64,000 bases of DNA from a virus. Shown here piece after piece: positions 1,887 through 42,051 of this stretch. The notes under the pieces are model-generated. The model made no database searches. It saw nothing but the letters and a program-made list of their open reading frames with translations, and was not told the DNA's origin. The DNA is taken from IMG/VR virus record IMGVR_UViG_3300035183_000733, positions 26,496 through 90,495 of that record. One strand, given 5' to 3'. How positions within the stretch are numbered: the first letter of the stretch is position 1; each line of letters starts with the position of its first letter. The position numbers and the translations under genes were made by a program.

Positions 1887-3719
1887 ATGATCGCCGATAA
1901 TGATAATACGCAGATGGAAGAGCAACGCGATGTTGCCGAGGGCGAACAGACCAGGACGGAGGCTGTTGACAACGTGAGGCGACAGCTCGAGGAAATGGTA
2001 ATGTATGAGCCCATAACCGCCACCAACGTTGCGGCGGCGATAGAACTGGCCAGGATTAGCGGCAGCGATACATCCGAACTACGCGCCTTACAAACAACAT
2101 CATCGGCAACCTCCGAGTGGGTCTCTATGGAATCGTACGGGGGCGGATACGAATCCGGCCTCGACGATTGGAACAACATTGGCACCGCGGAACCGCAGCC
2201 GGTGCGAGAGGATACCGAGGAGGAGAAAGCGGCCAAGTTCGCCGAGCGGCTCCGACTCGCCGAGGAACTGAAGATTAAAGTATTAAAAACAAAATCGAGG
2301 AAAATGTCAAGAACACGCACCGTAATACTGGAAGAGATAGCCACCAGCGTCATCAACAACGTAGACAGCGCGCTTGCATCCATAACCGAGCAATCGACCC
2401 ACGAAAATTTCGTGAGCTACTTGAGCTACTTGTCCGAGTATATGGACCGGTGCGACACGCACATAGATAACCAGATAAGCAAGGAACAGCTGAAGAAGAA
2501 GAAGCTTGCCGAGTCTATGCTTAGGAATAAGCCGGACATGCGGTCGAAACTGTTCTGTCCGATGGGGATAGAGTACACGTACCATCCAAAGATCAGAAGA
2601 CCAAAAATAAAAGAATCTGCTATAAGCGAGAATTCCAGACTAAACAACATAGCCTACGCGGGCGGTAATATAAAGTTCAGGACCTACACAATGACTTTGG
2701 ATTTAGATGGATCTCCAAGATTTACTCCTAATCAAATAGAATCCACGGAACAGACCACACCAGAGAACACGGAACGTCAAGAAATACCTGATGACTTATT
2801 GTCTGCGAAGCTTGCTACAGAGGATCCAGTCGCGGAGGAACAACCACAGGAGCCAGAGCCGGTGGCACCTAACCCCAATTACGAGCCATCTGTATTCTCC
2901 CGCGGGAATAGACGAGATACATTGGACAAAATAGTGACGAGGATATTGACGAGGATAAATGAAGTCAAGCGGGCCACCGGTCTCTATCCGGAGGCAAGGG
3001 TATACGCGGACAACGGCGTCGTAGAGGTGTGCTCTCCGGTGCACCGAGACTGGAAGTCCATGCGAGAATGGTACAGGTGGATGGTGAACGAGCTCGGCTC
3101 CTCTGTGACTGTCATAAACAAGAAGAAGGGTAGCGGTGGCGGACACATCAACTGCGCCATGCCAAAAAAACTGAAGGAGAAGTTCATGTACAACCTGCTC
3201 GTGGACATCGGCAACAGGCCGTACCTCAACTGGATATTCAATGACCCGAGCGATAACCACACAGCCAACTGCATGTGGGACTCTAAGGATATGCAGCGCA
3301 TCTACGAGCACGTACACAAAAACAAAGAGAAGTGGGACGCCGACGACAGCGACTTCATAAGTACCTTGGGCGAACTGATAACTCTCACCAACTCAAGAGG
3401 CTTCGCCATCAGAGTGAAATCTGAATACCACTTCGAGTTCAGGTGTTTCGACGCCATAAGAAACGAGCGGGACCTCGAGGACATTGTCATATTCGTTAGT
3501 GAGTACATGCGCAGCATATACTCCATGACAGTAGCGGGTAACATGTTTGACAGCATCGGTGGGACCACGGATGACCTCCCGAATTTTGCGGCCACTGCCC
3601 GGACAGATTTCAACAGGCTGCTGCGGAAAATTGGGCTCGATCCGGAAAATTACCGCAGGTTCATCGACCGCAATTTCGAGGTTCGGCGGAAAGTTTATGG
3701 AAAAAATAACCTCATTTGA
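1887..3719 (+). CDS. hypothetical protein (610 aa); C-terminal half weakly amidoligase / carboxylate-amine-ligase-like
   Basis: long ORF; motifs GVVEVCSPV and GGGHINCAM recall the GS-like amidoligase fold; speculative. Confidence 0.55.
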   Translation: MIADNDNTQMEEQRDVAEGEQTRTEAVDNVRRQLEEMVMYEPITATNVAAAIELARISGSDTSELRALQTTSSATSEWVSMESYGGGYESGLDDWNNIGTAEPQPVREDTEEEKAAKFAERLRLAEELKIKVLKTKSRKMSRTRTVILEEIATSVINNVDSALASITEQSTHENFVSYLSYLSEYMDRCDTHIDNQISKEQLKKKKLAESMLRNKPDMRSKLFCPMGIEYTYHPKIRRPKIKESAISENSRLNNIAYAGGNIKFRTYTMTLDLDGSPRFTPNQIESTEQTTPENTERQEIPDDLLSAKLATEDPVAEEQPQEPEPVAPNPNYEPSVFSRGNRRDTLDKIVTRILTRINEVKRATGLYPEARVYADNGVVEVCSPVHRDWKSMREWYRWMVNELGSSVTVINKKKGSGGGHINCAMPKKLKEKFMYNLLVDIGNRPYLNWIFNDPSDNHTANCMWDSKDMQRIYEHVHKNKEKWDADDSDFISTLGELITLTNSRGFAIRVKSEYHFEFRCFDAIRNERDLEDIVIFVSEYMRSIYSMTVAGNMFDSIGGTTDDLPNFAATARTDFNRLLRKIGLDPENYRRFIDRNFEVRRKVYGKNNLI

Positions 3720-3980: not shown

Positions 3981-4155
3981 GCTCAAAAAGGTTGTGTGAC
4001 GTCGCTGAGGGAACCCAGTGGACACAGAGGATTATCGTTCCATTCCAGATTGACCATCCTCAAGCAACACTCTCCTGAAAACTGGCGTACGCCCGGAGCA
4101 ATCCGGGCCGCGGCCAAGCTGAGTCTCTTAGCCCCCTAAGGCTCAGCGGAACATT

Positions 4156-4285
4156 TGTCGAGTACAACTGGAGGTCAAGCGCTGATCAAAGGTGGTCCTG
4201 ACGGGAAGCAGCAGTCTAATTAACTGCTGGAGCCCGATCAAACTCAGCAAAGGAAGTGCGGGTTCGAATCCCGCCTCGACGGCAG
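4156..4285 (+). ncRNA. tRNA-like 3' element (T-arm GCGGG-TTCGAAT-CCCGC plus 7-bp acceptor) without canonical cloverleaf; possible tmRNA-like or insertion-bearing tRNA
   Basis: perfect T-arm at 4258-4274; 3' acceptor ctcgacg pairs with tgtcgag at 4156-4162 which is 127 nt away; internal 7-bp hairpin 4211-4231; 5' boundary uncertain. Confidence 0.25.
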
Positions 4286-4360
4286 TGCAAGAACTACGGT
4301 GAACATGGGTTCGTCCCTCCGCCGTAGTTTTTAAAAATGAATTAAAAACCGAAACAATTC

Positions 4361-4390
4361 GGGATATATAGAGTATAAAGATAAGATTGT
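4361..4390 (+). promoter_or_regulatory. candidate phage promoter, motif GGATATATAgAgTATAAAgATAAG
   Basis: near-identical 30-nt motif recurs at 16148 and 20038 and partly at 25728, each upstream of a short ORF, a terminator and a tRNA cluster. Confidence 0.45.
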
Positions 4391-4463
4391 TCTACCTTAT
4401 TCCCAACAAATGGCAGATATACAAACAGGGACTTGCCAGGTAAAATAGTCGAACTAAAAAGAC

Positions 4464-4550
4464 ATGAAGAAGTATAACGCATATCAGCAGTATAATCAAA
4501 ATCAGAATCAAAGTTCTGGGCTGAGCGTTATTTCCCCATTTGAAAAGTAG
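4464..4550 (+). CDS. short leader ORF (28 aa, MKKYNAYQQ..), TAG stop
   Basis: start ATGAAGAAG resembles the leader ORFs at 16171, 20063 and 25742; sits between promoter motif and terminator. Confidence 0.25.
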   Translation: MKKYNAYQQYNQNQNQSSGLSVISPFEK

Positions 4551-4574
4551 TAACACACTATACAACGCGTAAAA

Positions 4575-4600
4575 GGCCCAGGACAAAATCCTGGGTCTTT
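4575..4600 (+). terminator. rho-independent terminator
   Basis: GGCCCAGGA-caaaa-TCCTGGGTC followed by TTTTT. Confidence 0.6.
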
Positions 4601-4606
4601 TTACTT

Positions 4607-4695
4607 GGGTGGATTACCGTAGAGGCCGAACGGTCCAGACTGTTAATCTGGTGTGACGACGAGTCCCATCGCAGGTTCGAATCCTGCTCCGCCCG
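4607..4695 (+). tRNA. tRNA with long variable arm (type-II-like), anticodon GTT (Asn-type)
   Basis: acceptor gggtgga/tccgccc; anticodon arm ccaga-ctgttaa-tctgg; 19-nt variable arm with gac/gtc hairpin; T-arm gcagg-ttcgaat-cctgc. Confidence 0.5.
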
Positions 4696-4731
4696 CAAAA
4701 ATAGGTCCGACACGGGTAGATAGTAAATTAT

Positions 4732-5079: not shown

Positions 5080-5163
5080 TGTCCGATCGCCTAATGGCAT
5101 GGCGCCGGGTTTTGGCCCCGGTGGGAAGTAATTCCTGTGTAGGTTCGACCCCTGCTCGGACAA
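5080..5163 (+). tRNA. tRNA with long variable arm, anticodon TTG (Gln-type)
   Basis: acceptor tgtccga/tcggaca; anticodon arm ccggg-ttttggc-cccgg is the same loop as tRNA-Gln(TTG) at 5282; 17-nt variable arm ggaa-gtaa-ttcc. Confidence 0.5.
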
Positions 5164-5281
5164 CAAGACATCGACAGAGGTACTCGTCCGCAGACGTGTG
5201 GAAAAGTGTGTGCTTGCGACCATTAAAGTCTCTGTGTATCCCAATAGGTAGGAAGTAATTACTCTGAATGATTGGGAATAC

Positions 5282-5354
5282 TGTCCTGTAGTGTAACTGG
5301 CAACACGTCGGGTTTTGGCCCCGAAGATTCCAGGTTCGAACCCTGGTGGGACAA
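5282..5354 (+). tRNA. tRNA-Gln (TTG)
   Basis: 73-nt cloverleaf; anticodon arm tcggg-ttttggc-cccga; T-arm ccagg-ttcgaac-cctgg. Confidence 0.8.
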
Positions 5355-5392
5355 CAAAACGAAATTTATTTCGTATCTTTGAAGTATTATAT

Positions 5393-5465
5393 TGTCCTGT
5401 AGTTCAACTGGCAGAGCGCCTGATTCTGGATCAGGATGTTGGAGGTTCGAACCCTCCCGGGACAA
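5393..5465 (+). tRNA. tRNA-Gln (CTG)
   Basis: 73-nt cloverleaf; anticodon arm cctga-ttctgga-tcagg; T-arm ggagg-ttcgaac-cctcc. Confidence 0.8.
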
Positions 5466-5529
5466 CATGGGAATTAAGAACAACAATTAGTAGATAGATG
5501 CTGTAATCCTAAATACACACAAAAGACTG

Positions 5530-7092
5530 GTGGCGGATATATTTGGAAATATGAGCATAATAACTAAAAAAGATTCGGGGAGGGTACGCGTACGTTTCGC
5601 GCCCTCCCCTACGGGACCCCTGCACTTAGGAGGGATCAGGACCGCATTATACAACTACCTGTTTGCTAAGAAGCACGGCGGCGATTTCATACTTCGCATC
5701 GAAGATACCGATGCGATGAGGTTCGTGCCAGGCGCCGAAGAGTATATCATCGAAGCGCTGAAGTGGTGCGGTATATCGCCCAACGAAGGCGTTGGATTTG
5801 GCGATGGTCCGCATGCACCATACAGGCAGTCGGAGAGAAAATCCATTTACAAGGAATACGCTATTAAGCTCGTGGAGCTCGGCCATGCATACTATGCGTT
5901 TGATACTGGGGTATCGCTCGAAGAGAGACGCGCTGTCAACAAGAATTTTATGTATAACGGGGTGACTCGCGAGTCGCTGAGAAATAGTTTGACGTTGTCT
6001 TCTGATGAGGTGAAATCGCTATTAGACTCGGAGACGCCGTACGTTATTCGGTTTAAGATACCGCGCAACACCGAGGTCGTGGTTAACGACATAGTTCGTG
6101 GTGCAATAAGGGTCAACACGAACACGCTCGACGACAAGGTATTGTTCAAGAGTGACGGCATGCCTACTTACCACCTGGCGAACATTGTGGATGACCATCT
6201 CATGGGGATCACCCATGTAATCCGAGGTGAGGAGTGGTTGCCGTCTGCCCCGCTGCACGTTCTTTTGTACGAGGCTCTCGAGTGGGACGCCCCAGAGTTC
6301 TGCCACCTTGCGTTGATACTTGGGCCTAACGGCAAGATGAGCAAGCGCGACATGGATTCTCTCGGGTTCCCAGTGTACCCGCTTGATTGGACAGATCCCA
6401 ACACGGGGGAAAAGGCATCCGGATACCGTGAGATGGGATTCCTACCGGAAGCGTTCATCAACATGCTTGCGTTCATCGGATGGAACCCCGGCAACGGCAA
6501 GGAGATAATGGGTCTCGACGAGATGGCAGAGGTGTTCGACCTCAGGAAGGTTCAGAGAGCTGGTGCCAAGTTCGACCCAAAGAAGGCGGAGTGGTACAGC
6601 AAGGAGTACATGAGGGTCGCTGACGACGCCGTGCTCGTCGAGAAGTGGATACCGGATCTGTGGGATAACGTTGATAAAAGCATTCCGCTTTCTCGCGTTT
6701 CTTCCGAGTACCGCACGAAGGTCGTCCACTTACTGAAGGAGAAGGTGGCATATCTCGGAAAGTTTTGGGAGAACGGCAGTTACTTCTTTATTGATCCAAC
6801 CGATATGTCGGTGCTCGATGAGTTGGCCGCGTCTAATGATAAGGTAACTCCGTTTATATTAAGCATGATGTCTAAGCTGATCGCCGATGATGTATTCGAT
6901 ATGACTACCACTAAGGCTTGCTTTGATTCTGCCATAGCAGAATCCGGCATTGAGCCGCGCGAGGCCGGTAAGGCATTGCGTGCTGCAGTTTGCGGCAACA
7001 AAGTGGGGCCGCCGATGTTCGACATATTGGTGGTGCTCGGAAAGAACACCACGTTGTCTCGTCTTAAGAACTGCGCAACTGCACGAAGCTAA
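5530..7092 (+). CDS. gltX: glutamyl-tRNA synthetase (class I, bacterial GltX type)
   Basis: PSPTGPLHLGG (HIGH), KMSKRD (KMSKS), LAFIGWNPG, YRQSER motifs; 520 aa. Confidence 0.9.
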   Translation: MADIFGNMSIITKKDSGRVRVRFAPSPTGPLHLGGIRTALYNYLFAKKHGGDFILRIEDTDAMRFVPGAEEYIIEALKWCGISPNEGVGFGDGPHAPYRQSERKSIYKEYAIKLVELGHAYYAFDTGVSLEERRAVNKNFMYNGVTRESLRNSLTLSSDEVKSLLDSETPYVIRFKIPRNTEVVVNDIVRGAIRVNTNTLDDKVLFKSDGMPTYHLANIVDDHLMGITHVIRGEEWLPSAPLHVLLYEALEWDAPEFCHLALILGPNGKMSKRDMDSLGFPVYPLDWTDPNTGEKASGYREMGFLPEAFINMLAFIGWNPGNGKEIMGLDEMAEVFDLRKVQRAGAKFDPKKAEWYSKEYMRVADDAVLVEKWIPDLWDNVDKSIPLSRVSSEYRTKVVHLLKEKVAYLGKFWENGSYFFIDPTDMSVLDELAASNDKVTPFILSMMSKLIADDVFDMTTTKACFDSAIAESGIEPREAGKALRAAVCGNKVGPPMFDILVVLGKNTTLSRLKNCATARS

Positions 7093-13268: not shown

Positions 13269-14786
13269 ATGCAACCATCTTCGTTTCAGAGTAACATCTA
13301 CAGTGCCATCACGGACACTGACAATAACATTCTCATAAATGCCAAGGCCGGTTCGGGCAAGACGACCACTATCGTGAATGCGCTCTCGCTCATACCGTCA
13401 ACGGAGTCAGTTATTTTTCTCGCGTTCAACCGATCCATTGTCAAGGAGCTCCAGGCGAGAGTGCCAAAGCACGTTATCGTGCGTACTCTGCACGGGAACG
13501 GCGCTAACGAATTACGTTATCACTACGGCCGCGACATAGTTGTAGACGAGGCAAAAATATCCAAGATAATCAAGAAGGTCTGCACCACGTGGGACATAGC
13601 CGAGGAGGAGCTTGAGTCGTACTGTGGTCGCGTCGAGAAGCTGGTCGACATTCGCCGCTTCGCGCTGCCGCAATCCCTTCCGGAGCTGCTCGACTTGACC
13701 ATGAAGCACGGTGTTGAGATTATGGGCGAAGAGATAGAACACTCGCGACAAGTGCTGCAGCTCGCTATGAAGGACAAGAAGACTTTCGATTTCACGGACA
13801 TGATATTCGTACCGGCCACATTCGACAAGCGCGTGCGCAAGTTCAAGTACGTGTTCGTGGACGAGTCTCAGGACTTGAACAGGGCTCAGCAGACTATGCT
13901 GCGCAAGATAGTTGATTTCGAGAATGGCGGCCGCTTTATTGCGGTGGGAGATCCAGGTCAGGCCATCTATGGTTTCGCCGGCGCAGACATCGATGCGTTT
14001 GCTAACCTGAAAAAATTATTGCCCAACACGATAGAGCTGCCTCTCAGCGTATGCTACCGTTGCGGGTCTAACATCATATCGCACGCCCAAGGAGTGGTGC
14101 CAGAGATTCAGGCGAGAGAAGGTGCGCACGGCGGAGAAGTGAGGTCCGGTTCTTACAAGGAGATTGCGCCCGGGGACTATGTTCTGTGCCGCAACACTCG
14201 CCCGCTCGTTTCGCTATGCTTACAGTTTATTGCAGGCGGAAAGAAGGCAACCATCAAGGGCAGAGACATTGGGAAGAACCTCATCAACATGATTAAAAAG
14301 ACGAAGGCCAAGTCGCAGGACGTGCTTTTCACTAAGCTTGGTGTGGAGTACAAAAAATTGGTCGACAAGGCCAAAGCCACGTTCCCGTTCAAAGACCCAG
14401 AGAAGGTTTCGTTCGTAGTTAATTTCGGCGATAAAATCGAGGCACTGCGTGCGATAGGGATGGAGTGTAGGAACGGCCATACTGACGAGATGATTTCCAC
14501 TATTGAGAAGATATTCACAGACAACGTTGAGGGGATTGTGCTAAGCACCATGCACAAGTCGAAGGGCCTTGAGACGGATAACGTGTTCATAATCGAGCGC
14601 CAGTTGTTACCTGCGTCATACGCTACGCAGGAATGGGAGCGCATCCAGGAGAGCAATCTGGATTACGTTGCGCGCACGAGAGCTAAGAACAAACTTATTT
14701 ACGTAAACGACTGGGCCGTGGATTTCGACGATCTTCCGAGAGTAAGAGCGACCGTGAACGAATTATTGATGGAGGTAACAGCATGA
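13269..14786 (+). CDS. UvrD/Rep-family SF1 DNA helicase
   Basis: AKAGSGKTTT, FVDESQD, GDPGQAIYGFAGAD, CYRCGSN, TMHKSKGLETDNVFI helicase motifs. Confidence 0.8.
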   Translation: MQPSSFQSNIYSAITDTDNNILINAKAGSGKTTTIVNALSLIPSTESVIFLAFNRSIVKELQARVPKHVIVRTLHGNGANELRYHYGRDIVVDEAKISKIIKKVCTTWDIAEEELESYCGRVEKLVDIRRFALPQSLPELLDLTMKHGVEIMGEEIEHSRQVLQLAMKDKKTFDFTDMIFVPATFDKRVRKFKYVFVDESQDLNRAQQTMLRKIVDFENGGRFIAVGDPGQAIYGFAGADIDAFANLKKLLPNTIELPLSVCYRCGSNIISHAQGVVPEIQAREGAHGGEVRSGSYKEIAPGDYVLCRNTRPLVSLCLQFIAGGKKATIKGRDIGKNLINMIKKTKAKSQDVLFTKLGVEYKKLVDKAKATFPFKDPEKVSFVVNFGDKIEALRAIGMECRNGHTDEMISTIEKIFTDNVEGIVLSTMHKSKGLETDNVFIIERQLLPASYATQEWERIQESNLDYVARTRAKNKLIYVNDWAVDFDDLPRVRATVNELLMEVTA

Positions 14787-15149: not shown

Positions 15150-15581
15150 ATGAACAAACAAAGTAACAGAATCATCGTACTTGAATATAGAATTGAGCGC
15201 GATCATACCGAAATTGATCTTGACCTACTTGAGAAGCAGTTTCCAGGATATAGTGACGACGACAAGAACTATCCACAGATAGTTCGCAAGAATAACAACA
15301 AAATGTCGTGGTCCGGTGAATGTGAGGTTATTGAGATTGGACATGTTGAGAAATTCATTGCCGATGCAAAAGCCAAGGGCTGCACACACATGGAAGTGAT
15401 GCACCATTCTGATCACAACGGATATTACTTTTACGGTGTGCATGTGTCGAGCGCGGATAAAAATGGAGCGAAGGAAATTAACGAGGAAATTAAAAATAAG
15501 CACGATGCCTTGTTGAGGAAGAAAAAGGCGGAGCTGGAGGCGGAACTAAAACAGGTAGAGGCGGAACTCGGTAAAAAATAA
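15150..15581 (+). CDS. hypothetical protein with coiled-coil C-terminus
   Basis: ORF ending just upstream of the tRNA pair. Confidence 0.5.
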   Translation: MNKQSNRIIVLEYRIERDHTEIDLDLLEKQFPGYSDDDKNYPQIVRKNNNKMSWSGECEVIEIGHVEKFIADAKAKGCTHMEVMHHSDHNGYYFYGVHVSSADKNGAKEINEEIKNKHDALLRKKKAELEAELKQVEAELGKK

Positions 15582-15604: not shown

Positions 15605-15689
15605 GCCCAGGTGGTGGAATTGGTAGACACGCTACTTTGAGGGGGTAGTGTCGCAAGATGCACGAGTTCGAGTCTCGTCCTGGGTACCA
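15605..15689 (+). tRNA. tRNA-Leu (GAG), type II, CCA encoded
   Basis: GCCCAGG-TG-GTGGAATTGGTAGACAC..; anticodon arm ctact-ttgaggg-ggtag; T-arm acgag-ttcgagt-ctcgt; discriminator A then CCA. Confidence 0.8.
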
Positions 15690-15691: not shown

Positions 15692-15762
15692 GACCCTGTA
15701 GCTCAAGGGTAGAGCGCTGGTCTCTAAAACCGGGGTTGCGGGTTCGAATCCCGTCAGGGTCT
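15692..15762 (+). tRNA. suppressor tRNA, anticodon CTA (reads UAG amber)
   Basis: clean 71-nt cloverleaf: GACCCTG-TA-GCTC-AAGGGTA-GAGC-G-CTGGT-CTCTAAA-ACCGG-GGTT-GCGGG-TTCGAAT-CCCGT-CAGGGTC-T. Confidence 0.85.
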
Positions 15763-15788
15763 CATAAATAAAGTGAAGGAATAAGAAT

Positions 15789-16112
15789 ATGAATAAGAGT
15801 GATTTGACTGAGATCCAACTTAAGTGCCTCGGGTTTAGTAAGGGCATGAGTCGTTGGACCGGCAAGGAGGAGTGGCAGTGGGGGACGCAGACCATAATAG
15901 TGTCCGGCCAAACCGTATACGAACCGATACTCACGTACAACGATGAGACAGGGGTTTTGCGCGGCGACATAACGCACGAGTTTGGCACGATGAGCATGAA
16001 CAAGAAGGTGACTAACGCCAGACACCTGGAGCTCGCGATGGAGCTCGCCTCGGTGGTGATGTCAGGGATAGGACTGGAAAAATATCGCCCAGTATTGCCA
16101 GGATCAAAATAA
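15789..16112 (+). CDS. hypothetical protein
   Basis: ORF downstream of the tRNA pair. Confidence 0.45.
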   Translation: MNKSDLTEIQLKCLGFSKGMSRWTGKEEWQWGTQTIIVSGQTVYEPILTYNDETGVLRGDITHEFGTMSMNKKVTNARHLELAMELASVVMSGIGLEKYRPVLPGSK

Positions 16113-16248: not shown

Positions 16249-16282
16249 CTTCTAAGTAAAACATTCGAAAACATTATGAAAC

Positions 16283-16312
16283 GCCCGGACCGAAAGTTCG
16301 GGCGTTTTTTAT
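16283..16312 (+). terminator. rho-independent terminator / processing hairpin before the tRNA cluster
   Basis: AAACGCCCGGAC-cgaaa-GTTCGGGCGTTTTTTATTTTTT. Confidence 0.65.
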
Positions 16313-16317
16313 TTTTT

Positions 16318-16392
16318 GGGGCTTTAGCACAGATGGTCAGTTTGCGCTCGCCTGAAGAGCGAGATATTCGGGTTCGAGTCCCGAAGGTCCCA
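16318..16392 (+). tRNA. tRNA-Phe (GAA)
   Basis: anticodon arm ctcgc-ctgaaga-gcgag; T-arm tcggg-ttcgagt-cccga; acceptor ggggctt/aggtccc. Confidence 0.8.
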
Positions 16393-16592: not shown

Positions 16593-16679
16593 GGTCCGAT
16601 AGCTCAGTTGGTTCAGAGCGCCTGTCTTACAAGCAGGAGGCGAAAGGTTCCGCAGGTTCGAATCCTGCTCGGACTACCA
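16593..16679 (+). tRNA. tRNA-Val (TAC) with enlarged 14-nt variable region, CCA encoded
   Basis: acceptor ggtccga/tcggact; anticodon arm cctgt-cttacaa-gcagg; T-arm gcagg-ttcgaat-cctgc; ACCA at 3' end. Confidence 0.6.
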
Positions 16680-17096: not shown

Positions 17097-17648
17097 TCAG
17101 GAATTCACCTGAGCCGGCGACGCCGGCATCAGTACGGCTTTCGCTTGGTTTAAATATTTCCTTCGGTCCTCGAGGCCGTTCGTTCCACCGTTAATCCTCT
17201 TAGTCACTTTGATGAAATCGTCGGCATCTGCGGCGATGTTCAGCTTGCGCTTGTTCCAGAACCAGCCTGCTGATATTATCCCCCACTTCCTGCTCGCGAG
17301 CAGAGGAGGGTTGGCAACGAAGTCGACGCCGAGGTCCTTGGATATGGATGCGTAGTTTGCGCGCCCTGTTATCTGGATAGCACCTCGACCTTTGAACTTC
17401 ACACCGTCCCCTGGTTGGGTATTGCCGAGATCCGCACGTCCCTCGTACGCCTTACCGGATGCTATTTCCTCAAAATACTTGAACCTACCGGACTCGTGCA
17501 GAATCTGCGCAAGGAAGTGACATACCCTTATCGGGGTGTTTATCTCGTATTTAGCCATGCACTCGTTCAACCCCGATAGTATCTCGGATAGGAGTGTTGG
17601 GTTGTTCAGCTTAGTTATGTCGGTCAGTTGTTGGAGATTCAGTTCCAT
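17097..17648 (-). CDS. endolysin, glycoside hydrolase family 19 (chitinase-like lysozyme)
   Basis: FLAQILHESGRFKYFEE ... KFKGRGAIQITGRANY motifs; start reset to internal Met 49 (MELNLQQ) because the listed N-terminus has no protein-like sequence. Confidence 0.75.
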   Translation of the reverse strand: MELNLQQLTDITKLNNPTLLSEILSGLNECMAKYEINTPIRVCHFLAQILHESGRFKYFEEIASGKAYEGRADLGNTQPGDGVKFKGRGAIQITGRANYASISKDLGVDFVANPPLLASRKWGIISAGWFWNKRKLNIAADADDFIKVTKRINGGTNGLEDRRKYLNQAKAVLMPASPAQVNS

Positions 17649-20196: not shown

Positions 20197-20267
20197 ACGG
20201 GCGTAGTTCAATGGTAGAATAGCGGTCTCCAAAACCGTTGATGGGGGTTCGAATCCCTCCACCCGTG
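20197..20267 (+). tRNA. tRNA-Trp (CCA)
   Basis: anticodon arm gcggt-ctccaaa-accgt; T-arm ggggg-ttcgaat-ccctc; 4-nt variable loop. Confidence 0.8.
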
Positions 20268-20820: not shown

Positions 20821-20905
20821 GGGATTGTAGTCGGTAAGGGATGCCGGCCGGTTTGTGGAGCCGGAATGACAAAGTCTAATGCGGGTTCGAATCCCGTCTT
20901 TCCCC
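20821..20905 (+). ncRNA. tRNA-like element, atypical (good T-arm, weak acceptor, 5-bp stem with 11-nt loop)
   Basis: T-arm gcggg-ttcgaat-cccgt; acceptor gggattg/ctttccc pairs 5 of 7; ccggc/gccgg stem with oversized loop. Confidence 0.3.
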
Positions 20906-20918
20906 CAGGTTTTTTTAT

Positions 20919-20993: not shown

Positions 20994-21065
20994 CAACGTT
21001 CCTCGGGCTATCGCAGCTACCGCGCTGTGTGTGGTCGCACGTGAGATAGGTCAAGGCTCACAAAT

Positions 21066-21134
21066 AGGCGGATACCGTTGGTTGGTAAGTTGCGATTGCA
21101 TCAAACGTGGGTTCGAGCCCCACTCCGCCTACCA
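21066..21134 (+). ncRNA. truncated tRNA-like element (66 nt + CCA): acceptor and T-arm present, no D or anticodon arms
   Basis: acceptor aggcgga/tccgcct perfect; T-arm gtggg-ttcgagc-cccac; ends ACCA. Confidence 0.35.
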
Positions 21135-21520
21135 TTTTTCCGTTTTATAAATTTGCATCATGCAAGAACGGATTGCCGAGATACGAGAACTGCTCTGGAT
21201 ATAGGTGCAGACTCGGTCGGCGCCTCGTCCGCGGCCGGCAGTTGCCATATACCGGTGACCGGGAATATTCGGACAGAATTGGTACCGTACCAGGAGTTTC
21301 TATTCAGGAGCTGCGCGGGTGGACGCCGAGCGTGCAAGCGCCGAACTGTCGTGGCCGATGGAAACATTGAATATCTCGGGACATATTTTTCAAGGCGTGG
21401 ATAACCAACTGGCTCCGTGACTTCGACAATTTCCTCCGTAGGAAGAGAATGTGCGAAATAACGTCTATCTTCGAGAAACGATTGTGGACGCGAACAGCGT
21501 GGAGAACGCGCAAGATATAA

Positions 21521-21590
21521 GGGCCCGTAGCTCAGTTGGTTAGGTTCAACGAGGACTGGAACGCGTTTAAGCCTCGAGTCATCCGGCCCC
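21521..21590 (+). ncRNA. degenerate tRNA-like element (canonical 5' half GGGCCCGTAGCTCAGTTGGTTAG, non-canonical 3' half)
   Basis: 5' acceptor gggcccg pairs with ccggccc at 21583-21589 in 6 of 7 positions; no standard T-loop. Confidence 0.3.
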
Positions 21591-21635
21591 AACCGTGGTG
21601 AGGCGCACGATGGATAGGTCAAGGCCATCAAATTT

Positions 21636-21726
21636 CGGCAGGTACCGTTGGTGTCTTATACACACTATACACGTAGCTGGTATGTTGAGATCACATCAAA
21701 CGTGGGTTCGAGTCCCACCCTGCCGA
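21636..21726 (+). ncRNA. tRNA-like element paralogous to 21066..21134 with a ~25-nt internal insertion
   Basis: acceptor cggcagg/cctgccg perfect; shares TACCGTTGGT...ATCAAACGTGGGTTCGAG(T/C)CCCA with 21066..21134. Confidence 0.35.
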
Positions 21727-22177
21727 CTTTTCTAATTCGTTCTTTTTATTTAATTTTGCCATTATGTGCAGGCTCGAAGAAATCAGATCATCGCTAATGG
21801 CTGAGGCCAGGGCCCAGGTGGACCGCATGCGTATAAACGTGAGCGTTCCTACGATGGACGGAAGGCCGACGAGCATGTCACGCAGCTGTGTATCGCGAAC
21901 GAGAAGAAGTACAAGCTGAACCAGACATTCGACTCCATAGCGCTTCCGAAGCTGACGGTGGACTCGGTTGTTAACCCGTTCGCAGAGGAGGCCAAGCAGA
22001 TAAATAATGCAGCAGGAGGGCGAGTTCTTCAAGGCGTGGATACACAGCTGGCTGCGGTTTCCTTACGCGAGTCAGGAATATCCGTGCAAAAATGAAGTGG
22101 TGGATATATTGGCGATCTTTTGCCCTAACACAAAATGGACAGAAGCAAAAAATAAAACGCGCAGATGATTATTTACC

Positions 22178-25111: not shown

Positions 25112-25360
25112 ATGAATAAGATAAAGGACGCGCTATACTGGATGACGCACACGAAGCTCGGGTGGCTTTTAATATCGTTCGTGTGGTTCGCCGTGTTCAT
25201 GGCCATAGACAATAACGTGGAAGGATCCTGGGCTTTCTGGACAGCGATGCCCGCCCTCGCATACATAACGGGGCTGACACTCGTGATGATTGCGTACGCC
25301 TGGGTGATAAACCCCATAAGAGAGCACAAGGAAAACAAGAGGCTGCGGGAGGGAAAATAG
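25112..25360 (+). CDS. small membrane protein (2 TM), TAG stop
   Basis: hydrophobic stretches; stop codon TAG at 25358. Confidence 0.5.
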   Translation: MNKIKDALYWMTHTKLGWLLISFVWFAVFMAIDNNVEGSWAFWTAMPALAYITGLTLVMIAYAWVINPIREHKENKRLREGK

Positions 25361-25961: not shown

Positions 25962-25966
25962 CAAAT

Positions 25967-26019
25967 AGTCGCTTAGCTCAGTTGGTTGGTCCCCAGTTCG
26001 AGTCTGGAAGCGACTACCA
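25967..26019 (+). ncRNA. tRNA minihelix-like element (acceptor + D-region + T-arm + CCA, no anticodon arm)
   Basis: AGTCGCT-TA-GCTCAGTTGGTTGGT-CCCAG-TTCGAGT-CTGGA-AGCGACT-A-CCA; perfect 7-bp acceptor. Confidence 0.35.
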
Positions 26020-26369: not shown

Positions 26370-26714
26370 GTGTGCATATTCGGGGAACCGGATGCTGAGG
26401 TGTCCACATGGATTGCAGCGCACGGTTTCGAGGTAGAAAAAGTTGGTCCTTATACGAATGTGTACATCGACAAGGACATCGATGAGGTGTTCGAGCCGGC
26501 GGGGAAGTTCCAGTACATGGACGGGTTCAGCCCGAACATGAACAAGCACCTGCACGTTGGCCATCTGTCCAACCTGGTGCTCGCAAAGGCGTTCCTCGGC
26601 ATGGGTGTCACCAATGGCACGGTGGCCATACTTGGCGACACTCTCGAGGGCGATGTTTCCAAGGACGAGGCGCTCGATAAGTTCAAGTTGTACGAATGGT
26701 CGTCAACCGTGTAG
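26370..26714 (+). pseudogene. arginyl-tRNA synthetase remnant (part of N-terminal domain plus HIGH region only)
   Basis: YMDGFSPNMNKHLHVGHLSNLVLAKAF matches the ArgRS D-Y/F-S-A/S-P-N-x-A-K-E-M-HVGHLRS catalytic-core start; only 114 aa, no rest of the enzyme. Confidence 0.6.
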
Positions 26715-27167: not shown

Positions 27168-28595
27168 TTATGCGTACATCTCTTTCAAAGTTATGAATCG
27201 CCTGTGGTCGCCACAGGCGACGAGCAGGTCCTCCTTCTTGAACTCGGAAGGGTGGTGGTACCCGCAAGCGTTGGACATCTCGTGGATCTCTTTGCGCAGC
27301 TGCTTGATGTAGTTAGCTGCGCGGACGGATTTGAGCGTCGGGTCTATGCCGTTCTGCAGCCACTTGTTCTGTGTGGCCACGCCAGACGGACACCTGTTCG
27401 TGTGACAAACCTGTGCCTGGATACAACCGATGGACATCAGCGCTTCCCTACCGACGTTAACCATATCACAGCCGAGCGCAAATGCCTTTATGGCATTGGC
27501 TGGAAGCCCGAGCTTGCCAGACCCGATGAACACTACGTTGTCGAGCGCCGGGTAAACTCTGAATATTTTTATGATGCTGTGTATTGCCTCGTTGAACGGC
27601 AGAGACAGGTGGTCTGTGAATGATGGTGGTGCTGCACCAGTGCCGCCCTCGCCGCCGTCTATTGTGATGAAATCCGGGCCGAAACCGGACATGGCCATTT
27701 GCGTGGCGAGCTCCTCCCAGTCTTTTACGCTTCCAATCGCCGCCTTTATACCGACAGGCAGACCGGTTGCGTTTGCTATCTCTTCGATAAAGTTTATCAT
27801 GCTTGTCACGTCCTTGAACGCGCTGTGAGTGCTTGGCGACACGGCGGCCTTGCCCATTTCGATGCCCCTGGCGTCTGCGATCTCCTGTGTCATCTTCGCG
27901 GCCGGCAGAATTCCTCCCTTGCCGGGCTTCGCGCCCTGGGACAGCTTTATCTCGATTGCCTTTATGCAGGGATTATCTTGCACGAGTTTCTTCAGCTTCT
28001 CGAGCGAGAACTTACCCTTCTCGTCGCACACTCCGAAGTATCCAGTTCCGAACTGGAACACCACGTCAGCCCCTTGCTTGTGATACACTGACAATCCGCC
28101 CTCCCCAGTGTTGTGGTAACAACCAGCGAGCTTAGCTCCGCCGTTAAGTGACTCTACAGCCTTTGCCGATAACGCGCCGAAGCTCATGCCAGATATGTTC
28201 ACTATAGAGTTTGGTGTGTATGGTTTTGCACGCTTGCCTTTGCCGAGCTGTTTCTTGCATGGCAGGTGACCGATGTTGTCGGAGTGCACCGGCATCATCT
28301 TGTGCTTTATGATTATGTGACCGGGTTCGTTGAAGTCCATGTCTGTACCGAACCCTGTGAGGTTGTTCTCATCCTTCGCCGAGGCATATATCCAAGCTCT
28401 GTGTCGCCTCGAGAATGGAAGCTCCTCTCTATTGTTGGCGATGAAGTACTGCCGGATTTCTGGACCTATCTTCTCGAACAGATAACGGATGTGTCCTATC
28501 ACCGGGAAGTTGTGGGTTATTGCGTGTCTGTTTTGCATTATGTCGCGTATGGCAACTACGGCCAGGAAAGCGACGAACAATAATAAATATAACAT
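27168..28595 (-). CDS. glutamate-synthase (GltB) FMN-domain-like protein with N-terminal TM anchor
   Basis: ISGMSFGALS, KLSQGAKPGKGGILP, IDGGEGGTGAAP, FIGSGKLGLP motifs typical of GltS domain-2 family proteins. Confidence 0.8.
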   Translation of the reverse strand: MLYLLLFVAFLAVVAIRDIMQNRHAITHNFPVIGHIRYLFEKIGPEIRQYFIANNREELPFSRRHRAWIYASAKDENNLTGFGTDMDFNEPGHIIIKHKMMPVHSDNIGHLPCKKQLGKGKRAKPYTPNSIVNISGMSFGALSAKAVESLNGGAKLAGCYHNTGEGGLSVYHKQGADVVFQFGTGYFGVCDEKGKFSLEKLKKLVQDNPCIKAIEIKLSQGAKPGKGGILPAAKMTQEIADARGIEMGKAAVSPSTHSAFKDVTSMINFIEEIANATGLPVGIKAAIGSVKDWEELATQMAMSGFGPDFITIDGGEGGTGAAPPSFTDHLSLPFNEAIHSIIKIFRVYPALDNVVFIGSGKLGLPANAIKAFALGCDMVNVGREALMSIGCIQAQVCHTNRCPSGVATQNKWLQNGIDPTLKSVRAANYIKQLRKEIHEMSNACGYHHPSEFKKEDLLVACGDHRRFITLKEMYA

Positions 28596-28648: not shown

Positions 28649-29287
28649 ATGAAGTACTCGTTTGGAGTTCCCCCAAAGTGGGATGTGTCGGAAAATGAGC
28701 TCGAGTGCACGGTCAACTCGCGTGATCTCGACCTGCCGACACAGAATCTCCACGTGCCGTTCTGCAAGAAACAGTACCTCCGACAAGCGGTTGTGAGCGC
28801 CGGTCCGAAGGAGATGGGCAAGATAGCCGAGAAGATAGCCGAGAAGAAGTACGATCTCGACCCGGTCGAGTCCGACGAGTTCGACTACTACATGGACGGC
28901 ATCAGGCTGGAAGTTAAGAGCTCTCGGGCTTTCGTCAAGGACAAGAGAAAAGTTCTCGTAAACGCGAAGGACCTCCCGTTCGAGCGCACGTACAACTGCA
29001 ACATCCAGCAGATAAAGCGCGGCCTGTTCGACGAACTGATGTACATGATATTCGCGCACGACAAGATCCAGGTGTTCATAATAAAGTCTGACGACATAGA
29101 ATCCGCGGACATAGGATACTCGAACAAGCAGCACAGGAACAACGAGGGCGAGGGTCAGTTCCACATACACTCCGGGAATTACTCGATGCACATAGACATG
29201 CTGATAGGCGAACTCGACTACGCCGAGTGCTACGAGATGCTATCCACGGACAAGGAATCCATGGAATTGCTCGCGAGATTTAATTAG
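28649..29287 (+). CDS. hypothetical protein, possible PD-(D/E)xK nuclease fold; TAG stop
   Basis: D..E.K arrangement in DYYMDGIRLEVKSSR; weak. Confidence 0.4.
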   Translation: MKYSFGVPPKWDVSENELECTVNSRDLDLPTQNLHVPFCKKQYLRQAVVSAGPKEMGKIAEKIAEKKYDLDPVESDEFDYYMDGIRLEVKSSRAFVKDKRKVLVNAKDLPFERTYNCNIQQIKRGLFDELMYMIFAHDKIQVFIIKSDDIESADIGYSNKQHRNNEGEGQFHIHSGNYSMHIDMLIGELDYAECYEMLSTDKESMELLARFN

Positions 29288-29689: not shown

Positions 29690-31180
29690 TTATCTGTGTA
29701 TTGATAGACCAGCAATATAATTGTTTACGGCGAATACGGTATCGTTGTACAGCTCGGCAACCTTGTCGGAATCCGGCTCGTCCATCAGGTCGGCCTGCTC
29801 GAACGCGGTGCCGAGGTCCTTCAACTTCTGTGCTGCGTCGTCCATGAGCTTGTTCAGCTCCACCTTGCCGTACCGTATACTCTTCAGGTACTCGGCCTCC
29901 GGCCTCCTCACTATAATGCCGCGGCCGGCGGCGATGTCCTCGCTCATGTATATGAGGCGCATGCAATGCAGCATGTTCTTGCCGTCGATCTTCTGGTTGT
30001 GTCCCTCAACGTCGATCCACCTCGCCTCGTTACGCTCGCGCCTCCAGGTCATGTACCGGTTGTACAACTTGCAGTGGGACATGAAACCGTCCTTGTTGTA
30101 ACTCATGTAGCACATTGGTACTGCATCCTTAGGCGTCTTGCTTAGACGGATAGTATCCGAGTCGTCGAGCACGATGCCCTTGTACCCGAGCATCTTCAAT
30201 CCGTGTGATTTGACCCATTCAAGGGTCCGCTCCGGATCATCGGCGAAGTACGCACTGAACATGCCTCCGTTTAATTCCCCGAGATACCCACGGACTACAT
30301 CGTTGTCCTTTATATCTGTCGCAGGTCGAGCCCCCTCTATTATCTCTTTCAGGTACACGATGGTATGTGCGAGTCGGTCGTAATATACGCCATACATGTC
30401 GCGCATGTGCTCCACAGCGTTCAGCGCGCAGAACCTCTGTTCCATGCCTCTTTCGGAGAGCCACTGCTCTATGGGAACACTACCCTGACCAACGAACGTG
30501 TAGCAGAAGTCGAGTGGACCCTTGCGTTCCATCTTCTCCTTCTCCCAGTTGTTCAGCTTGTCCTGACCGTCGGCCTTGCGTATCTGACTCTCCCCGTAAC
30601 CGAGGAACGCCTTGTAACAAAGCTTCGACAGAAACACTTCCGGGCGTTTGAGCAATATGTCCATCTCTGGGTGTTTGTAAACGAGGCAGTCGTCCGGTAT
30701 GTCGAAAACCTCGAGCATGTTTGGGTTGTTCACCGCGAGCAGCGATATGAACTTGCGCATCGAGTAGTAAGTGGTCTCCTCGTTGGTTTCCATGTTCTTC
30801 TCCTTTATTTCCTCCCAGTCGGGGTTGAAATCGAACATGGAGTAGTACGAATCCGGGAATATGAACACGGCCTTGTAGTCGGTGTCGGACGTCGGCACGT
30901 TGGTGCCGTATGCCCTGCTGCCGGTTATGTACTTTAGCACGATGTACTGCTCGATGTCCTTTGACGTGAGGGCCTTCCGGAAGTTGTGCCTCGCGTGCCC
31001 GTACTCGAATCTGTACTTGTCGCCAAGGTAATCGACGTAGACGAACCCATCGAGTATGTCGGTAATGGGGAACGCGTAGTCCTTCTTCTCGAACACCCTC
31101 GTGCTGTCGTCGGTCACGCACAGTGCGGACATCTTATTCTCCACCTTGTAGAACTCTCCTATTTTGAGATTTATTAGCAT
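29690..31180 (-). CDS. nucleotidyltransferase (Pol-beta superfamily, GS...SDxD type), 496 aa
   Basis: YITGSRAYGTNVPTSDTDYKAVFIF is the minimal NTase signature (hGS-x9-13-SDhDh). Confidence 0.6.
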   Translation of the reverse strand: MLINLKIGEFYKVENKMSALCVTDDSTRVFEKKDYAFPITDILDGFVYVDYLGDKYRFEYGHARHNFRKALTSKDIEQYIVLKYITGSRAYGTNVPTSDTDYKAVFIFPDSYYSMFDFNPDWEEIKEKNMETNEETTYYSMRKFISLLAVNNPNMLEVFDIPDDCLVYKHPEMDILLKRPEVFLSKLCYKAFLGYGESQIRKADGQDKLNNWEKEKMERKGPLDFCYTFVGQGSVPIEQWLSERGMEQRFCALNAVEHMRDMYGVYYDRLAHTIVYLKEIIEGARPATDIKDNDVVRGYLGELNGGMFSAYFADDPERTLEWVKSHGLKMLGYKGIVLDDSDTIRLSKTPKDAVPMCYMSYNKDGFMSHCKLYNRYMTWRRERNEARWIDVEGHNQKIDGKNMLHCMRLIYMSEDIAAGRGIIVRRPEAEYLKSIRYGKVELNKLMDDAAQKLKDLGTAFEQADLMDEPDSDKVAELYNDTVFAVNNYIAGLSIHR

Positions 31181-31257: not shown

Positions 31258-31446
31258 TTACTTTTTCTTTATGGTTATCTGGACCTTCTTGTTGGGGTCC
31301 GAAATGTCTTGCGCGATGAACACGATGTGCTCATCCTTGCTATCATTGGCGAATATCCTGCACTCCGACAGTTCCGCCTTGAAGTTTCCGAAGTCTATTA
31401 CTACTTCGGCAGTCGCGTCCTTATGGACTTTAAGTTGTTCTGACAT
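31258..31446 (-). CDS. hypothetical small protein
   Basis: ORF only. Confidence 0.35.
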   Translation of the reverse strand: MSEQLKVHKDATAEVVIDFGNFKAELSECRIFANDSKDEHIVFIAQDISDPNKKVQITIKKK

Positions 31447-31682
31447 TTGTTCTTTATTTTGTGTGCTGTCGTCTTTATGTGGCCGCCGACTGCCGCGACA
31501 GGATTAGTTCGGGAGAAGTAGAAATACAGACCAAAGAATAGCGCTGCCACAAAGTAGAATATTCCAGTAGTCACCCAATAGCTCCCAGTCAAGTCCAAAA
31601 TCATTTTGAACAAGACGTCGAAGCCCAGCGGGTTGAAGAACATCCCGAGCATTAAGCAAATTATGGCGATTCTGTTTCTCAC
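31401..31682 (-). CDS. hypothetical small membrane protein
   Basis: two hydrophobic helices. Confidence 0.35.
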   Translation of the reverse strand: MRNRIAIICLMLGMFFNPLGFDVLFKMILDLTGSYWVTTGIFYFVAALFFGLYFYFSRTNPVAAVGGHIKTTAHKIKNKCQNNLKSIRTRLPK

Positions 31683-38519: not shown

Positions 38520-39950
38520 TTATTGTGCTTCCCACATATACACCTGCGCTGTTGTCGTTCCAGTTTCAGTCCATGCAATATCGAATGATGTTGATGTGAC
38601 GTTCTGAATGACTCCCGAAATATAACTTCCCCCGCCTGTTGCTAAAAGTATTGCAAAGGTGGTTGAAGATAAACCCGCTTGAGTTGCGGTAATTGTTGCT
38701 CCGAATCGTTGATATACACACCTGTTTCCGCTTGAGTTCCATATACCAATAGATGATGTGGTTGCGGTTGCAGAGCTGTTTGCGGTAAATGTACCATAAC
38801 CATAAATTCTTATGATAGCTGGAACCTTTCCGAGACCATGTGTGATTGTTGTTGTTTGGGTAGCAGCTGGAGAAGTACCAACACCTGCTGTTGATAACGG
38901 GGCTCCAGAGTAACCAGAAACCCCAGATACTCCGCTGAACCCACTTCGACCGCTGAACCCAGATATTCCGGATGAGCCACTCGTACCGGAGAATCCTGAA
39001 GTACCTGCTGCACCGTTTGTTCCCGAGAATCCTGAAGTCCCGCTATAACCAGAAAACCCAGAGACCCCTGAGTAACCCGACATGCCGCTGAATCCAAAGA
39101 TCCCTGAGTAACCCGACAGCCCAGAAAAACCAGATGCGCCAGAGTATCCGGAGAACCCGCTTCGGCCGCTGGTACCAGAAACTCCGGAGTATCCGGAGAA
39201 CCCTGAGGAACCATTTGTACCGTCAGTACCACTGAATCCAGATACTCCAGAATAACCGGAGAAACCACTAATGCCGGAGAAACCGGACACGCCCGACACG
39301 CCCGAAAAACCTTGGGTCCCGCTGAAACCAGAAGTACCAGAAATACCGATATTTCCCGAATAACCCGACACGCCACTGAATCCGCTCACTCCAGAGACCC
39401 CCGACACGCCAGATGATCCACTCGTGCCGCTTATACCAGAATAACCGGATAAGCCGAGTCCTGAATAACCAGAGACCCCGCTAAATCCAGAAGCAGCTTG
39501 TGCATCCGCCAAATTTTGCGTTGTTATTAACTTTCCAGATGTACCAAGATCTGGTAGCTCTATCAGTACCGTCTGAGTCAAAGATCTTGGGTCGAATGAT
39601 ATTACGTCTGGACGCCATACAAGATCCTGCATGAACTCGTATATCTCGGCCCTTGTAAAGTAGTCGAGAATATTCTCAGAGTTCGGCATAACAAAATGCC
39701 TTCTGTACTCGTATTTCATCTCAGCGGAAACGCCAGACCAATTCGGAATAACGTGCGAATTTGCCGAGTCCTTCCAGTCAAAATACTCCATGCGCTTAAC
39801 TGAAAAGAACAAGTACAACGTCTCAGGCGAAGTGACGTCCGTGGCGCCATTGGTGGCAAAGTTATAGTTGTCCGGCACTATGTAATAGTTGCTCAACTGT
39901 CCGTCGACCGTAGATTGAATGCCGTTGCTATCTAATACTGCTATCCTCAT
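38520..39950 (-). CDS. collagen-like (Gly-X-Ser)n repeat fibre protein
   Basis: about 60 uninterrupted SG[FYVTIL] triplets; start reset to MRIAVLD so that it abuts the upstream stop. Confidence 0.7.
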   Translation of the reverse strand: MRIAVLDSNGIQSTVDGQLSNYYIVPDNYNFATNGATDVTSPETLYLFFSVKRMEYFDWKDSANSHVIPNWSGVSAEMKYEYRRHFVMPNSENILDYFTRAEIYEFMQDLVWRPDVISFDPRSLTQTVLIELPDLGTSGKLITTQNLADAQAASGFSGVSGYSGLGLSGYSGISGTSGSSGVSGVSGVSGFSGVSGYSGNIGISGTSGFSGTQGFSGVSGVSGFSGISGFSGYSGVSGFSGTDGTNGSSGFSGYSGVSGTSGRSGFSGYSGASGFSGLSGYSGIFGFSGMSGYSGVSGFSGYSGTSGFSGTNGAAGTSGFSGTSGSSGISGFSGRSGFSGVSGVSGYSGAPLSTAGVGTSPAATQTTTITHGLGKVPAIIRIYGYGTFTANSSATATTSSIGIWNSSGNRCVYQRFGATITATQAGLSSTTFAILLATGGGSYISGVIQNVTSTSFDIAWTETGTTTAQVYMWEAQ

Positions 39951-39952
39951 TT

Positions 39953-42046: not shown

Positions 42047-42051
42047 TTATA

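Follow-up and report, generated by a model that had tools for sequence, protein, structure and literature searches.

The DNA analysed here, called the window, is a stretch of 64,000 nucleotides (positions 26,496 to 90,495 of IMG/VR record IMGVR_UViG_3300035183_000733) within a 373,759-bp metagenomic jumbo-phage contig whose GC content is ~49%. At positions 15692-15762 on its + strand lies sup1, the gene for a 71-nt class-I tRNA with the anticodon CUA, a 4-nt variable loop, the discriminator U73, and no encoded CCA. A tRNA-Leu(GAG) gene, found by both ARAGORN and Rfam and ending in an encoded CCA (15605-15689, + strand), is present 2 nt upstream. This Leu-sup1 pair sits inside a string of + strand genes that ends at a strong predicted terminator. 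A 143-aa ORF (15150-15581, +) ends 24 nt before tRNA-Leu and is apparently part of the same transcription unit, and a 107-aa ORF (15789-16112, +), whose start is preceded by AAGGAA, begins 27 nt after sup1; neither ORF has a family match. The intrinsic-terminator-like hairpin, a 13-bp stem with a T-run at 16278-16318 (+), would end the unit.

According to ARAGORN, the + strand of the window contains 20 tRNA genes, which lie between 4.6 and 26.3 kb. Three of these, the tRNA-Gln genes UUG, UUG, and CUG (5080-5466, +), are located directly upstream of a gene for a complete bacterial-type glutamyl-tRNA synthetase (GluRS; 5551-7092, +), which matches TIGR00464 with 430 bits, against a cutoff of 290, and PDB 6b1z with 535 bits. 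The closest cellular homologs of this enzyme, at 50-55% identity, are almost all from Bacteroidota, and thus the host of the phage is probably a member of this phylum. Nucleotide comparison with GenBank phages yields no close relative, the single match being a 58-nt segment of tRNA-Val, and the topoisomerase II large subunit is ~30% identical to its counterparts in T4-like phages. Besides topoisomerase II, the window encodes a sigma-factor-like protein, thioredoxin, a UvrD-type helicase, a family-B DNA polymerase, a RecA-like protein, and RNase HII. Two products are unusual cargo for a phage: an RNA-repair nucleotidyltransferase of the RlaP family (29690-31180, -; 59 bits), possibly connected with tRNA repair, and a protein of 475 aa that contains a glutamate-synthase FMN domain (27168-28595, -; 258 bits).

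Genes of the lysis and structural classes are also present. A GH19-type endolysin gene (17097-17648, -; phrog_181, E = 4e-64; Pfam Glyco_hydro_19) lies 1.3 kb from sup1, and a late-gene block (38520-47640, -) contains five collagen-like tail-fibre genes together with two unassigned ORFs. One tail-fibre gene (45406-46173, -) doubles as a virion-structural homolog. The five genes are paralogous and encode Gly-X-Y collagen-like repeats with a 9-nt periodicity; two of them have common N-terminal modules (42742-43104 and 45778-46140, 77-88% identical). A search for repeated motifs returned these collagen-like coding repeats and tRNA arms alone.

Structure and relationships of sup1

The gene sup1 is a genuine tRNA gene of the amber-suppressor type. 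ARAGORN places it at 15692-15763 (+) with the anticodon cta, and Rfam RF00005 matches 15692-15762 with 67.7 bits (gathering score 29; E = 1.4e-12 for the whole window); this match ranks second among the 18 that the tRNA model has there. The covariance-model alignment covers 71 of 71 model positions and flags zero non-standard pairs. In this alignment, a 7-bp acceptor stem (GACCCUG/CAGGGUC) with the terminal pair G1:C72 is followed by a D stem (GCUC/GAGC), which includes the pairs C11:G24 and C13:G22 and closes a 7-nt D loop, AAGGGUA. The anticodon stem is CUGGU/ACCGG, and the T loop is UUCGAAU. Stems of 7, 4, 5, and 5 bp, U33, a purine at position 37, G18G19 in the D loop, and a T loop of the GUUCGAAU type are the features of a canonical elongator tRNA. 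Because the model puts CUCUAAA in the 7-nt anticodon loop, positions 34-36 are CUA, and ARAGORN and the covariance model agree on this anticodon. The original prediction, which was made by reading the sequence, had described each of these elements (acceptor, D stem, anticodon stem, loop, and T loop) correctly and had assigned an anticodon that reads UAG; neither program made a different call.

The cloverleaf given here is that of the covariance model, since MFE folding of the single sequence does not reproduce it. Such folding commonly misses the cloverleaf of unmodified tRNA sequences. Two independent Logan assemblies built from different runs (L005 and L006) give exactly the same letters for sup1 as the window does, so the gene is not the product of an assembly error.

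ARAGORN applies the label "tRNA-Pyl" automatically to any tRNA with a CUA anticodon. Authentic tRNA-Pyl has a 3-nt variable loop, a small D loop without G18G19, a 6-bp anticodon stem, and an atypical T loop, and its gene is linked to pylS/pylBCD; the anticodon is all that sup1 has in common with it. Since sup1 contains G18G19 within a 7-nt D loop, a normal T loop (UUCGAAU), a 5-bp anticodon stem, and a 4-nt variable loop, it is not a pyrrolysine tRNA. There are also no pyl genes among the annotated ORFs.

Another candidate origin, a single-step anticodon mutation in a co-resident sense tRNA as in suppressors of the su7 or supE type, can also be rejected, as the bodies are only 56-69% identical: 69% for the local tRNA-Trp, 67% for tRNA-Gln(CUG), and 56% for tRNA-Gln(UUG). 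The tRNA-Trp(CCA) gene (20197-20267, +; ARAGORN and Rfam) has the same 71-nt layout as sup1, and its loop, CUCCAAA, differs from CUCUAAA in base 35 alone. Thus, the earlier view that sup1 is no obvious derivative of the local tRNA-Trp or tRNA-Gln is correct for the tRNA body, but sup1 shares with tRNA-Trp the unusual 71-nt layout and a loop that is common to both apart from base 35. The E. coli suppressor su+7 (supU) is tRNA-Trp with the anticodon CUA, charged mainly with Gln. In su+7 and sup1 alike, the loop CUCUAAA and the lower stem correspond to a tRNA-Trp arm with the change C35U. However, the body of su+7 is that of tRNA-Trp, whereas sup1 has G1:C72 and U73 in place of the A1:U72 and G73 of tRNA-Trp. 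With a body that is 69% identical and a different acceptor end and discriminator, sup1 did not arise from the phage tRNA-Trp by a single anticodon mutation.

Similarity to other tRNAs gives several partial likenesses. In a set of 186 phage tRNAs, which is biased by how the comparison tRNAs were chosen, the nearest neighbours of sup1 are Lys (0.72, the best non-suppressor), Arg (0.71), and Trp (0.66). BLAST of sup1 against phages gives generic backbone matches alone, to Leu(CAA) and Asp tRNAs, and against E. coli it gives none; these searches are uninformative on isotype. U73 and the 71-nt layout recall Gly or Cys tRNAs, and the discriminator is different in the sup1 ortholog of a related phage.

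Conservation, a second tRNA(CUA), and the tRNA set

Relatives of the phage were collected by a deep search with the helicase gene located 0.9 kb upstream, yielding a series graded by helicase identity. The relative L126/L127, recovered from two samples, has a helicase that is 86% identical, is syntenic with the window, and contains the same tRNA-Leu(GAG)-tRNA(CUA) tandem. It also encodes a GluRS (L126 876-2426), and the gene directly after it (2429-3301) encodes a GatB/YqeY-domain protein, an arrangement that hints at tRNA-Gln involvement.

The sup1 ortholog of this relative scores 60.9 bits and keeps the anticodon CUA. Three stem pairs have changed on both sides and are still paired: 2:71 is A:U in sup1 and G:C in the relative, 27:43 is C:G and G:C, and 50:64 is C:G and U:A, respectively. 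One side has changed, again with pairing retained, at 1:72 (G:C in sup1, G•U in the relative), 28:42 (U•G, C:G), and 49:65 (G•U, G:C). The D stem, the 4-nt variable loop, the T loop, and the 7-nt anticodon loop are identical, and the D loop has one extra U in the relative (AAGGGUUA, 8 nt, rather than AAGGGUA). The acceptor end is more variable. Discriminator 73 is U in sup1 and A in the relative, and two pairs that are C:G in sup1 are mismatched in the relative, 4:69 as U×C and 5:68 as U×U. Overall, this is the pattern that would be expected of a tRNA kept functional with a CUA anticodon. Three pairs that have changed on both sides and remain paired, together with an invariant anticodon loop, indicate that sup1 is under selection. 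The two mismatched acceptor pairs cast some doubt on the full function of the relative's copy. The Leu-sup1 pair is absent from relatives with 78% and ~60% helicase identity, and there is no tRNA array near the helicase gene in distant relatives (about 40-62% identity). Consequently, orthology does not reveal the ancestral anticodon of sup1.

The same genome contains a second tRNA(CUA) gene, sup2, ~6.6 kb upstream of the window start (L025 2890-2965, equivalent to window positions -6618 to -6543). It is 76 nt long, matches Rfam with 56.2 bits, and adjoins a tRNA-Cys(GCA) gene; in the relative with 78% helicase identity (L128), tRNA-Cys is present and sup2 is absent. The body of sup2, with a variable loop of 5 nt, is unrelated to that of sup1. 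However, the anticodon arm is identical, CGGUCUCUAAAACCG, and is that of the local tRNA-Trp with C35U. In IMG/VR, dozens of phage tRNA(CUA) genes have the same arm on very different bodies, GGUCUCUAAAACC being common to many of them, and several of these genes lie in contigs of >300 kb. This arm matches the efficient context of the su7 amber suppressor, a likeness that suggests convergent selection for suppression efficiency. The original case for an amber-suppressor-type tRNA next to tRNA-Leu is strengthened by the ortholog in L126/L127 and by sup2.

These comparisons bear on whether sup1 might be a neutral or decaying gene that acquired its CUA anticodon by drift and serves no function under selection. 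Decay could account for the mismatched acceptor pairs and different discriminator of the relative's copy, and relatives at ~60% helicase identity lack the whole tRNA array. However, sup1 itself has a perfect cloverleaf at 67.7 bits, three compensated pairs and an invariant 7-nt anticodon loop separate and unite the orthologs, and the independent sup2 has the same anticodon arm, which is common to many unrelated phage tRNA(CUA) bodies. Decay is thus very unlikely.

The tRNA set is peculiar in other ways. Bacterial tRNAs with a long variable arm are normally those for Leu, Ser, Tyr, and Sec. In the phage and its relatives, a long variable arm (class-II-like, 84-90 nt) is found in tRNAs for Asn(GUU), Gln(UUG), Val(UAC), His(GUG), and Pro, and canonical genes of 74-77 nt for these isoacceptors are located next to them. 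These long-arm genes are found in the window at 4607-4696, 5080-5164, 16593-16679, and 20821-20906, and in the relatives at 14362-14445 and 15508-15592 of L126 and at 5879-5967, 6277-6361, and 6530-6615 of L128. A role in mischarging or in the evasion of defence is conceivable; ARAGORN draws these tRNAs with normal 7/5 stems, which sets them apart from the allo-tRNAs of PMC5389517.

A 75-nt class-I tRNA with the anticodon ACU (56.6 bits), labelled Ser by ARAGORN, is encoded at L025 7593-7667 (window -1915 to -1841), and its loop, CUACUAA, resembles that of the local tRNA-Arg(UCU) with U34A. Unmodified A34 is unusual in a tRNA. Rfam tRNA matches with large internal insertions are present at L025 7119-7254 (136 nt) and L126 14979-15135 (157 nt), and tRNA-like 5' or 3' halves that ARAGORN does not call occur in the window at 4257-4287, 21072-21132, 21519-21541, 21667-21727, and 25965-25987, several of them within a gene-free stretch at 20995-22177. 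The inserted matches and the halves may represent intron-containing or split tRNA genes. Outside this genome, one IMG/VR contig with a tRNA(CUA) gene (L008) also has a tRNA with a UUA anticodon, of the ochre-suppressor type, at 2898-2972.

Use of TAG in 78.7 kb of the genome

In phages that have reassigned TAG, which include crAss-like phages, Lak phages, and other gut clades [Borges et al., bioRxiv 10.1101/2021.08.26.457843; PMC13037316], a class-I tRNA(CUA) is found in a standard-code tRNA region, as is sup1. These phages also resemble the window phage in being large, in having a big tRNA set, and in the host phylum, Bacteroidota, which is probable here. Their replication and suppressor genes stay in the standard code, and it is mainly the structural and lysis genes that contain in-frame stops [Borges et al., bioRxiv 10.1101/2021.08.26.457843]. 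An early region free of in-frame TAG is therefore weak evidence against recoding, and the genes of the structural and lysis classes are the more telling ones.

The sequence inspected for TAG usage consists of the window, 10 kb upstream of it (L025), and 5 kb downstream (L027), with identical overlaps; it amounts to 78,684 bases, or about 21% of the 373,759-bp contig. A self-trained codon model finds 98 genes at 80% coding density. TAA ends 65 of these genes, TGA 23, and TAG 10; for the 76 genes of the window alone, the corresponding numbers are 51, 20, and 5. Thus, TAG is the rarest stop, yet it ends 10 of 98 genes and is not depleted as a terminator. When TAG is read as sense, there are fewer ORF fusions and less lengthening than with the TGA or TAA controls. 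No TAG joins two coding-like segments among the 98 genes, and treating TAG as sense uncovers no hidden coding in the gene-free gaps, which are short. Within the classes that recoded phages preferentially affect, the endolysin gene and the five tail-fibre genes, one of them the virion-protein homolog, have no in-frame TAG and are all intact in the standard code; the two unassigned ORFs of the late-gene block likewise lack an in-frame TAG. No release-factor domain, including that of RF2, is present among the precomputed Pfam matches and the scans of ORFs of at least 300 aa.

Readthrough of the TAG-terminated genes would add little. The median tail is 8 codons for TAG, 6 for TGA, and 11 for TAA. 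In the window, the 82-aa gene at 25112-25360 (+) would gain 9 codons before a TAA, the 212-aa gene at 28649-29287 (+) 6 codons, and the 138-aa gene at 51065-51481 (-) 4 codons, and in the 83-aa gene at 31401-31652 (-) a TAA comes directly after the TAG. The remaining gene (114 aa; 26370-26714, +) is followed by 302 open codons, which are non-coding by codon score. A TAG-join at this position was rejected, as the extension scores 0.04 per codon and then turns negative and overlaps the real minus-strand gene with the Glu_synthase domain. An open stretch within 4146-4613 was likewise rejected as TAG-joined coding, being on the minus strand with a negative codon score, and an apparent TAG-join in L126 is antisense to the GluRS gene of that relative.

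As a positive control, the same test was applied to IMG/VR loci with similar suppressors. It finds an endolysin gene with two in-frame TAGs in an IMG/VR locus from an unrelated phage with a similar tRNA(CUA) (L019, IMGVR_UViG_3300012979_000253). Pfam aligns the Phage_lysozyme2 domain of this protein in one piece across a TAG, making L019 a clear case of TAG recoding. The L019 gene (5294-6706, -) encodes Peptidase_M15, Phage_lysozyme2, PG_binding, and SH3 domains. Weaker candidates for TAG recoding are L010, L014, L015, and L022.

TAG recoding is therefore unsupported in the 78.7 kb, late genes included, and the phage uses the standard code there. The original prediction had noted that no long ORF of the window is split by an in-frame TAG, and the fusion, codon-score, and gap tests uphold this. 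It had also named three ORFs that end in TAG, at 4464-4550, 25112-25360, and 28649-29287. All three do, although the first encodes just 28 aa and is not called as a gene, and the TAG-terminated genes of the window number five. The proposal that the tRNA serves TAG-recoded genes elsewhere finds no support within the 78.7 kb, tail fibres, virion protein, and endolysin included. The checks suggested along with it point the same way, since reading TAG as sense, as in a code of the code-15 type, extends ORFs less than the TGA and TAA controls do, and the stop ratio of 65 TAA to 23 TGA to 10 TAG is found where no TAG joins coding-like segments.

A code-15-like partial recoding, in which some late genes (capsid, portal, terminase, or other lysis genes) within the other ~295 kb would contain in-frame TAGs read by sup1 and sup2, as in crAss-like, Lak, and other recoded phages, thus appears unlikely. 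Suppressor tRNAs are strongly associated with recoded phages, and recoded jumbo phages often have a tRNA(CUA) [PMC13037316]. The early and replication genes and the suppressors of recoded phages stay in the standard code in any case [Borges et al.]. The genome has two suppressors, at least one of which is clearly under selection; its probable host phylum is that of the known TAG-to-Gln phages; and the IMG/VR phages with the same anticodon arm include the recoded L019. On the other side are the absence of in-frame TAG from gene classes that are preferentially recoded and the persistence of TAG as a terminator. A GC content of ~49% is at odds with the published route to recoding, which involves low GC [Borges et al., bioRxiv 10.1101/2021.08.26.457843]. 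An RF2 gene is not seen among the annotated ORFs, the standard code also appears to be in use in the close relatives, and a recoded close relative was not found. Thus, with in-frame TAG in 0 of 98 genes, TAG at 10% of gene ends, its GC content, and no RF2 seen, the window phage is unlike the TAG-recoded phages despite the similar tRNA.

Possible roles of a suppressor in a standard-code phage

The account that best combines these observations, and that is probably correct, is that sup1 is an amber-suppressor tRNA kept by selection in a phage whose code has not (yet) been reassigned, with readthrough that is tolerated and probably timed. RNase P and the 3' processing enzymes of the host would release the Leu-sup1 pair from a longer transcript, and CCA, which sup1 does not encode, would be added after transcription. 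Between the orthologs, the acceptor stem and discriminator differ and the D arm, the 4-nt variable loop, and the anticodon loop are fixed, which suggests that the charging enzyme recognises chiefly U35 and the core of the tRNA rather than the acceptor end. tRNAs with a CUA anticodon are usually charged by GlnRS or LysRS. Host GlnRS would be the most likely choice, with LysRS or the phage GluRS as alternatives. Charged sup1 would then compete with release factor 1 for UAG codons. Of the proteins encoded in the visible genome, about 10% would acquire a C-terminal tail (median length, 8 residues), and host UAG stops would be read through as well. The tRNA would not be needed to read the genes in the inspected 78.7 kb.

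The phage GluRS, which co-occurs with sup1, is a candidate charging enzyme. GluRS reads U35, the core of the D arm, and the absence of nucleotide 47, and it does not read the discriminator. This would agree with the fixed 4-nt variable loop and D arm of sup1 and with its variable acceptor stem and discriminator. One could thus imagine a dedicated pair, in which the phage enzyme charges sup1 with Glu, possibly followed by transamidation to Gln, independently of the host synthetases. Both the window phage and its relative encode GluRS beside tRNA-Gln genes, and the relative has the GatB/YqeY-domain protein as well. However, the D-stem pairs of sup1, C11:G24 and C13:G22, are not of the tRNA-Glu type, the variable loop of sup2 has 5 nt, and the enzyme looks like an ordinary gltX product. 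A test for relaxed specificity at base 36 gave no signal. The residue aligned to Arg358 of the T. thermophilus enzyme, which reads C36, is Lys in the phage protein, but 19 of 80 Bacteroidota homologs also have Lys there, and a relaxation particular to the phage is thus not seen at this position. A dedicated pair of sup1 and the phage GluRS is very improbable.

The benefit of suppression to a standard-code phage could also lie outside its own genes. The suppressor might act as a weapon or counter-measure, either by causing readthrough of host UAG stops during takeover or by interfering with co-infecting TAG-recoded phages of Bacteroidota. The conservation of sup1 without visible in-frame targets would fit such a role, as would its setting among translation and RNA-repair accessories (at least 20 tRNAs, GluRS, and the RlaP nucleotidyltransferase), and the cost to the phage would be low because TAG is its rarest stop and the added tails are short. 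Literature searches gave no precedent, and this role is quite unlikely. A broader version, which is distinctly improbable, makes the suppressors part of a decoding-reprogramming kit in a standard-code phage, serving some purpose other than reading its own genes. The kit would hold the two tRNA(CUA), the long-variable-arm Asn, Gln, Val, and His tRNAs, the Arg-like ACU tRNA, and GluRS. If it exists, the reading of stops, and possibly of some sense codons, would be altered in the infected cell, for takeover or for interference with recoded rivals.

The explanation of tolerated readthrough has its own difficulty. It fits the data, but if both suppressors are under purifying selection, as they appear to be, the phage should gain something from them, and plain readthrough offers no obvious advantage; in the literature the decoding of reassigned stops is the only supported role of natural phage suppressors. 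The state of the window phage most likely corresponds to the "suppressor acquired, code not (yet) reassigned" condition of the standard-code relatives of recoded phages [Borges et al.]. A precedent is the standard-code Agate phage with a TGA suppressor, which has been proposed as a step before a code change [Borges et al., bioRxiv 10.1101/2021.08.26.457843]. Like the Agate phage, the window phage has a suppressor, a visible genome in code 11, and a suppressed codon that is the rarest stop. However, the Agate phage has low GC and recoded close relatives, whereas the window phage has two TAG suppressors, 49% GC, and no such relatives among those found.

Suppressor tRNAs have already been described in phages, including jumbo phages [PMC13037316] and standard-code relatives of recoded phages [Borges et al.], and thus sup1 is a further example and not evidence of a rewritten code. 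Phage amber suppressors are normally taken as a flag for a reassigned code; the present case indicates that a tRNA(CUA) alone should not trigger annotation with code 15. What still makes sup1 interesting is that it may be a suppressor kept without recoding and that the tRNA set to which it belongs is strikingly odd. Should the standard code also apply to the remainder of the genome, this phage would be an unambiguous natural example of suppressor maintenance without a code change. Such a case, if true, would bear on how a change of the genetic code begins and on whether suppressors have other uses.
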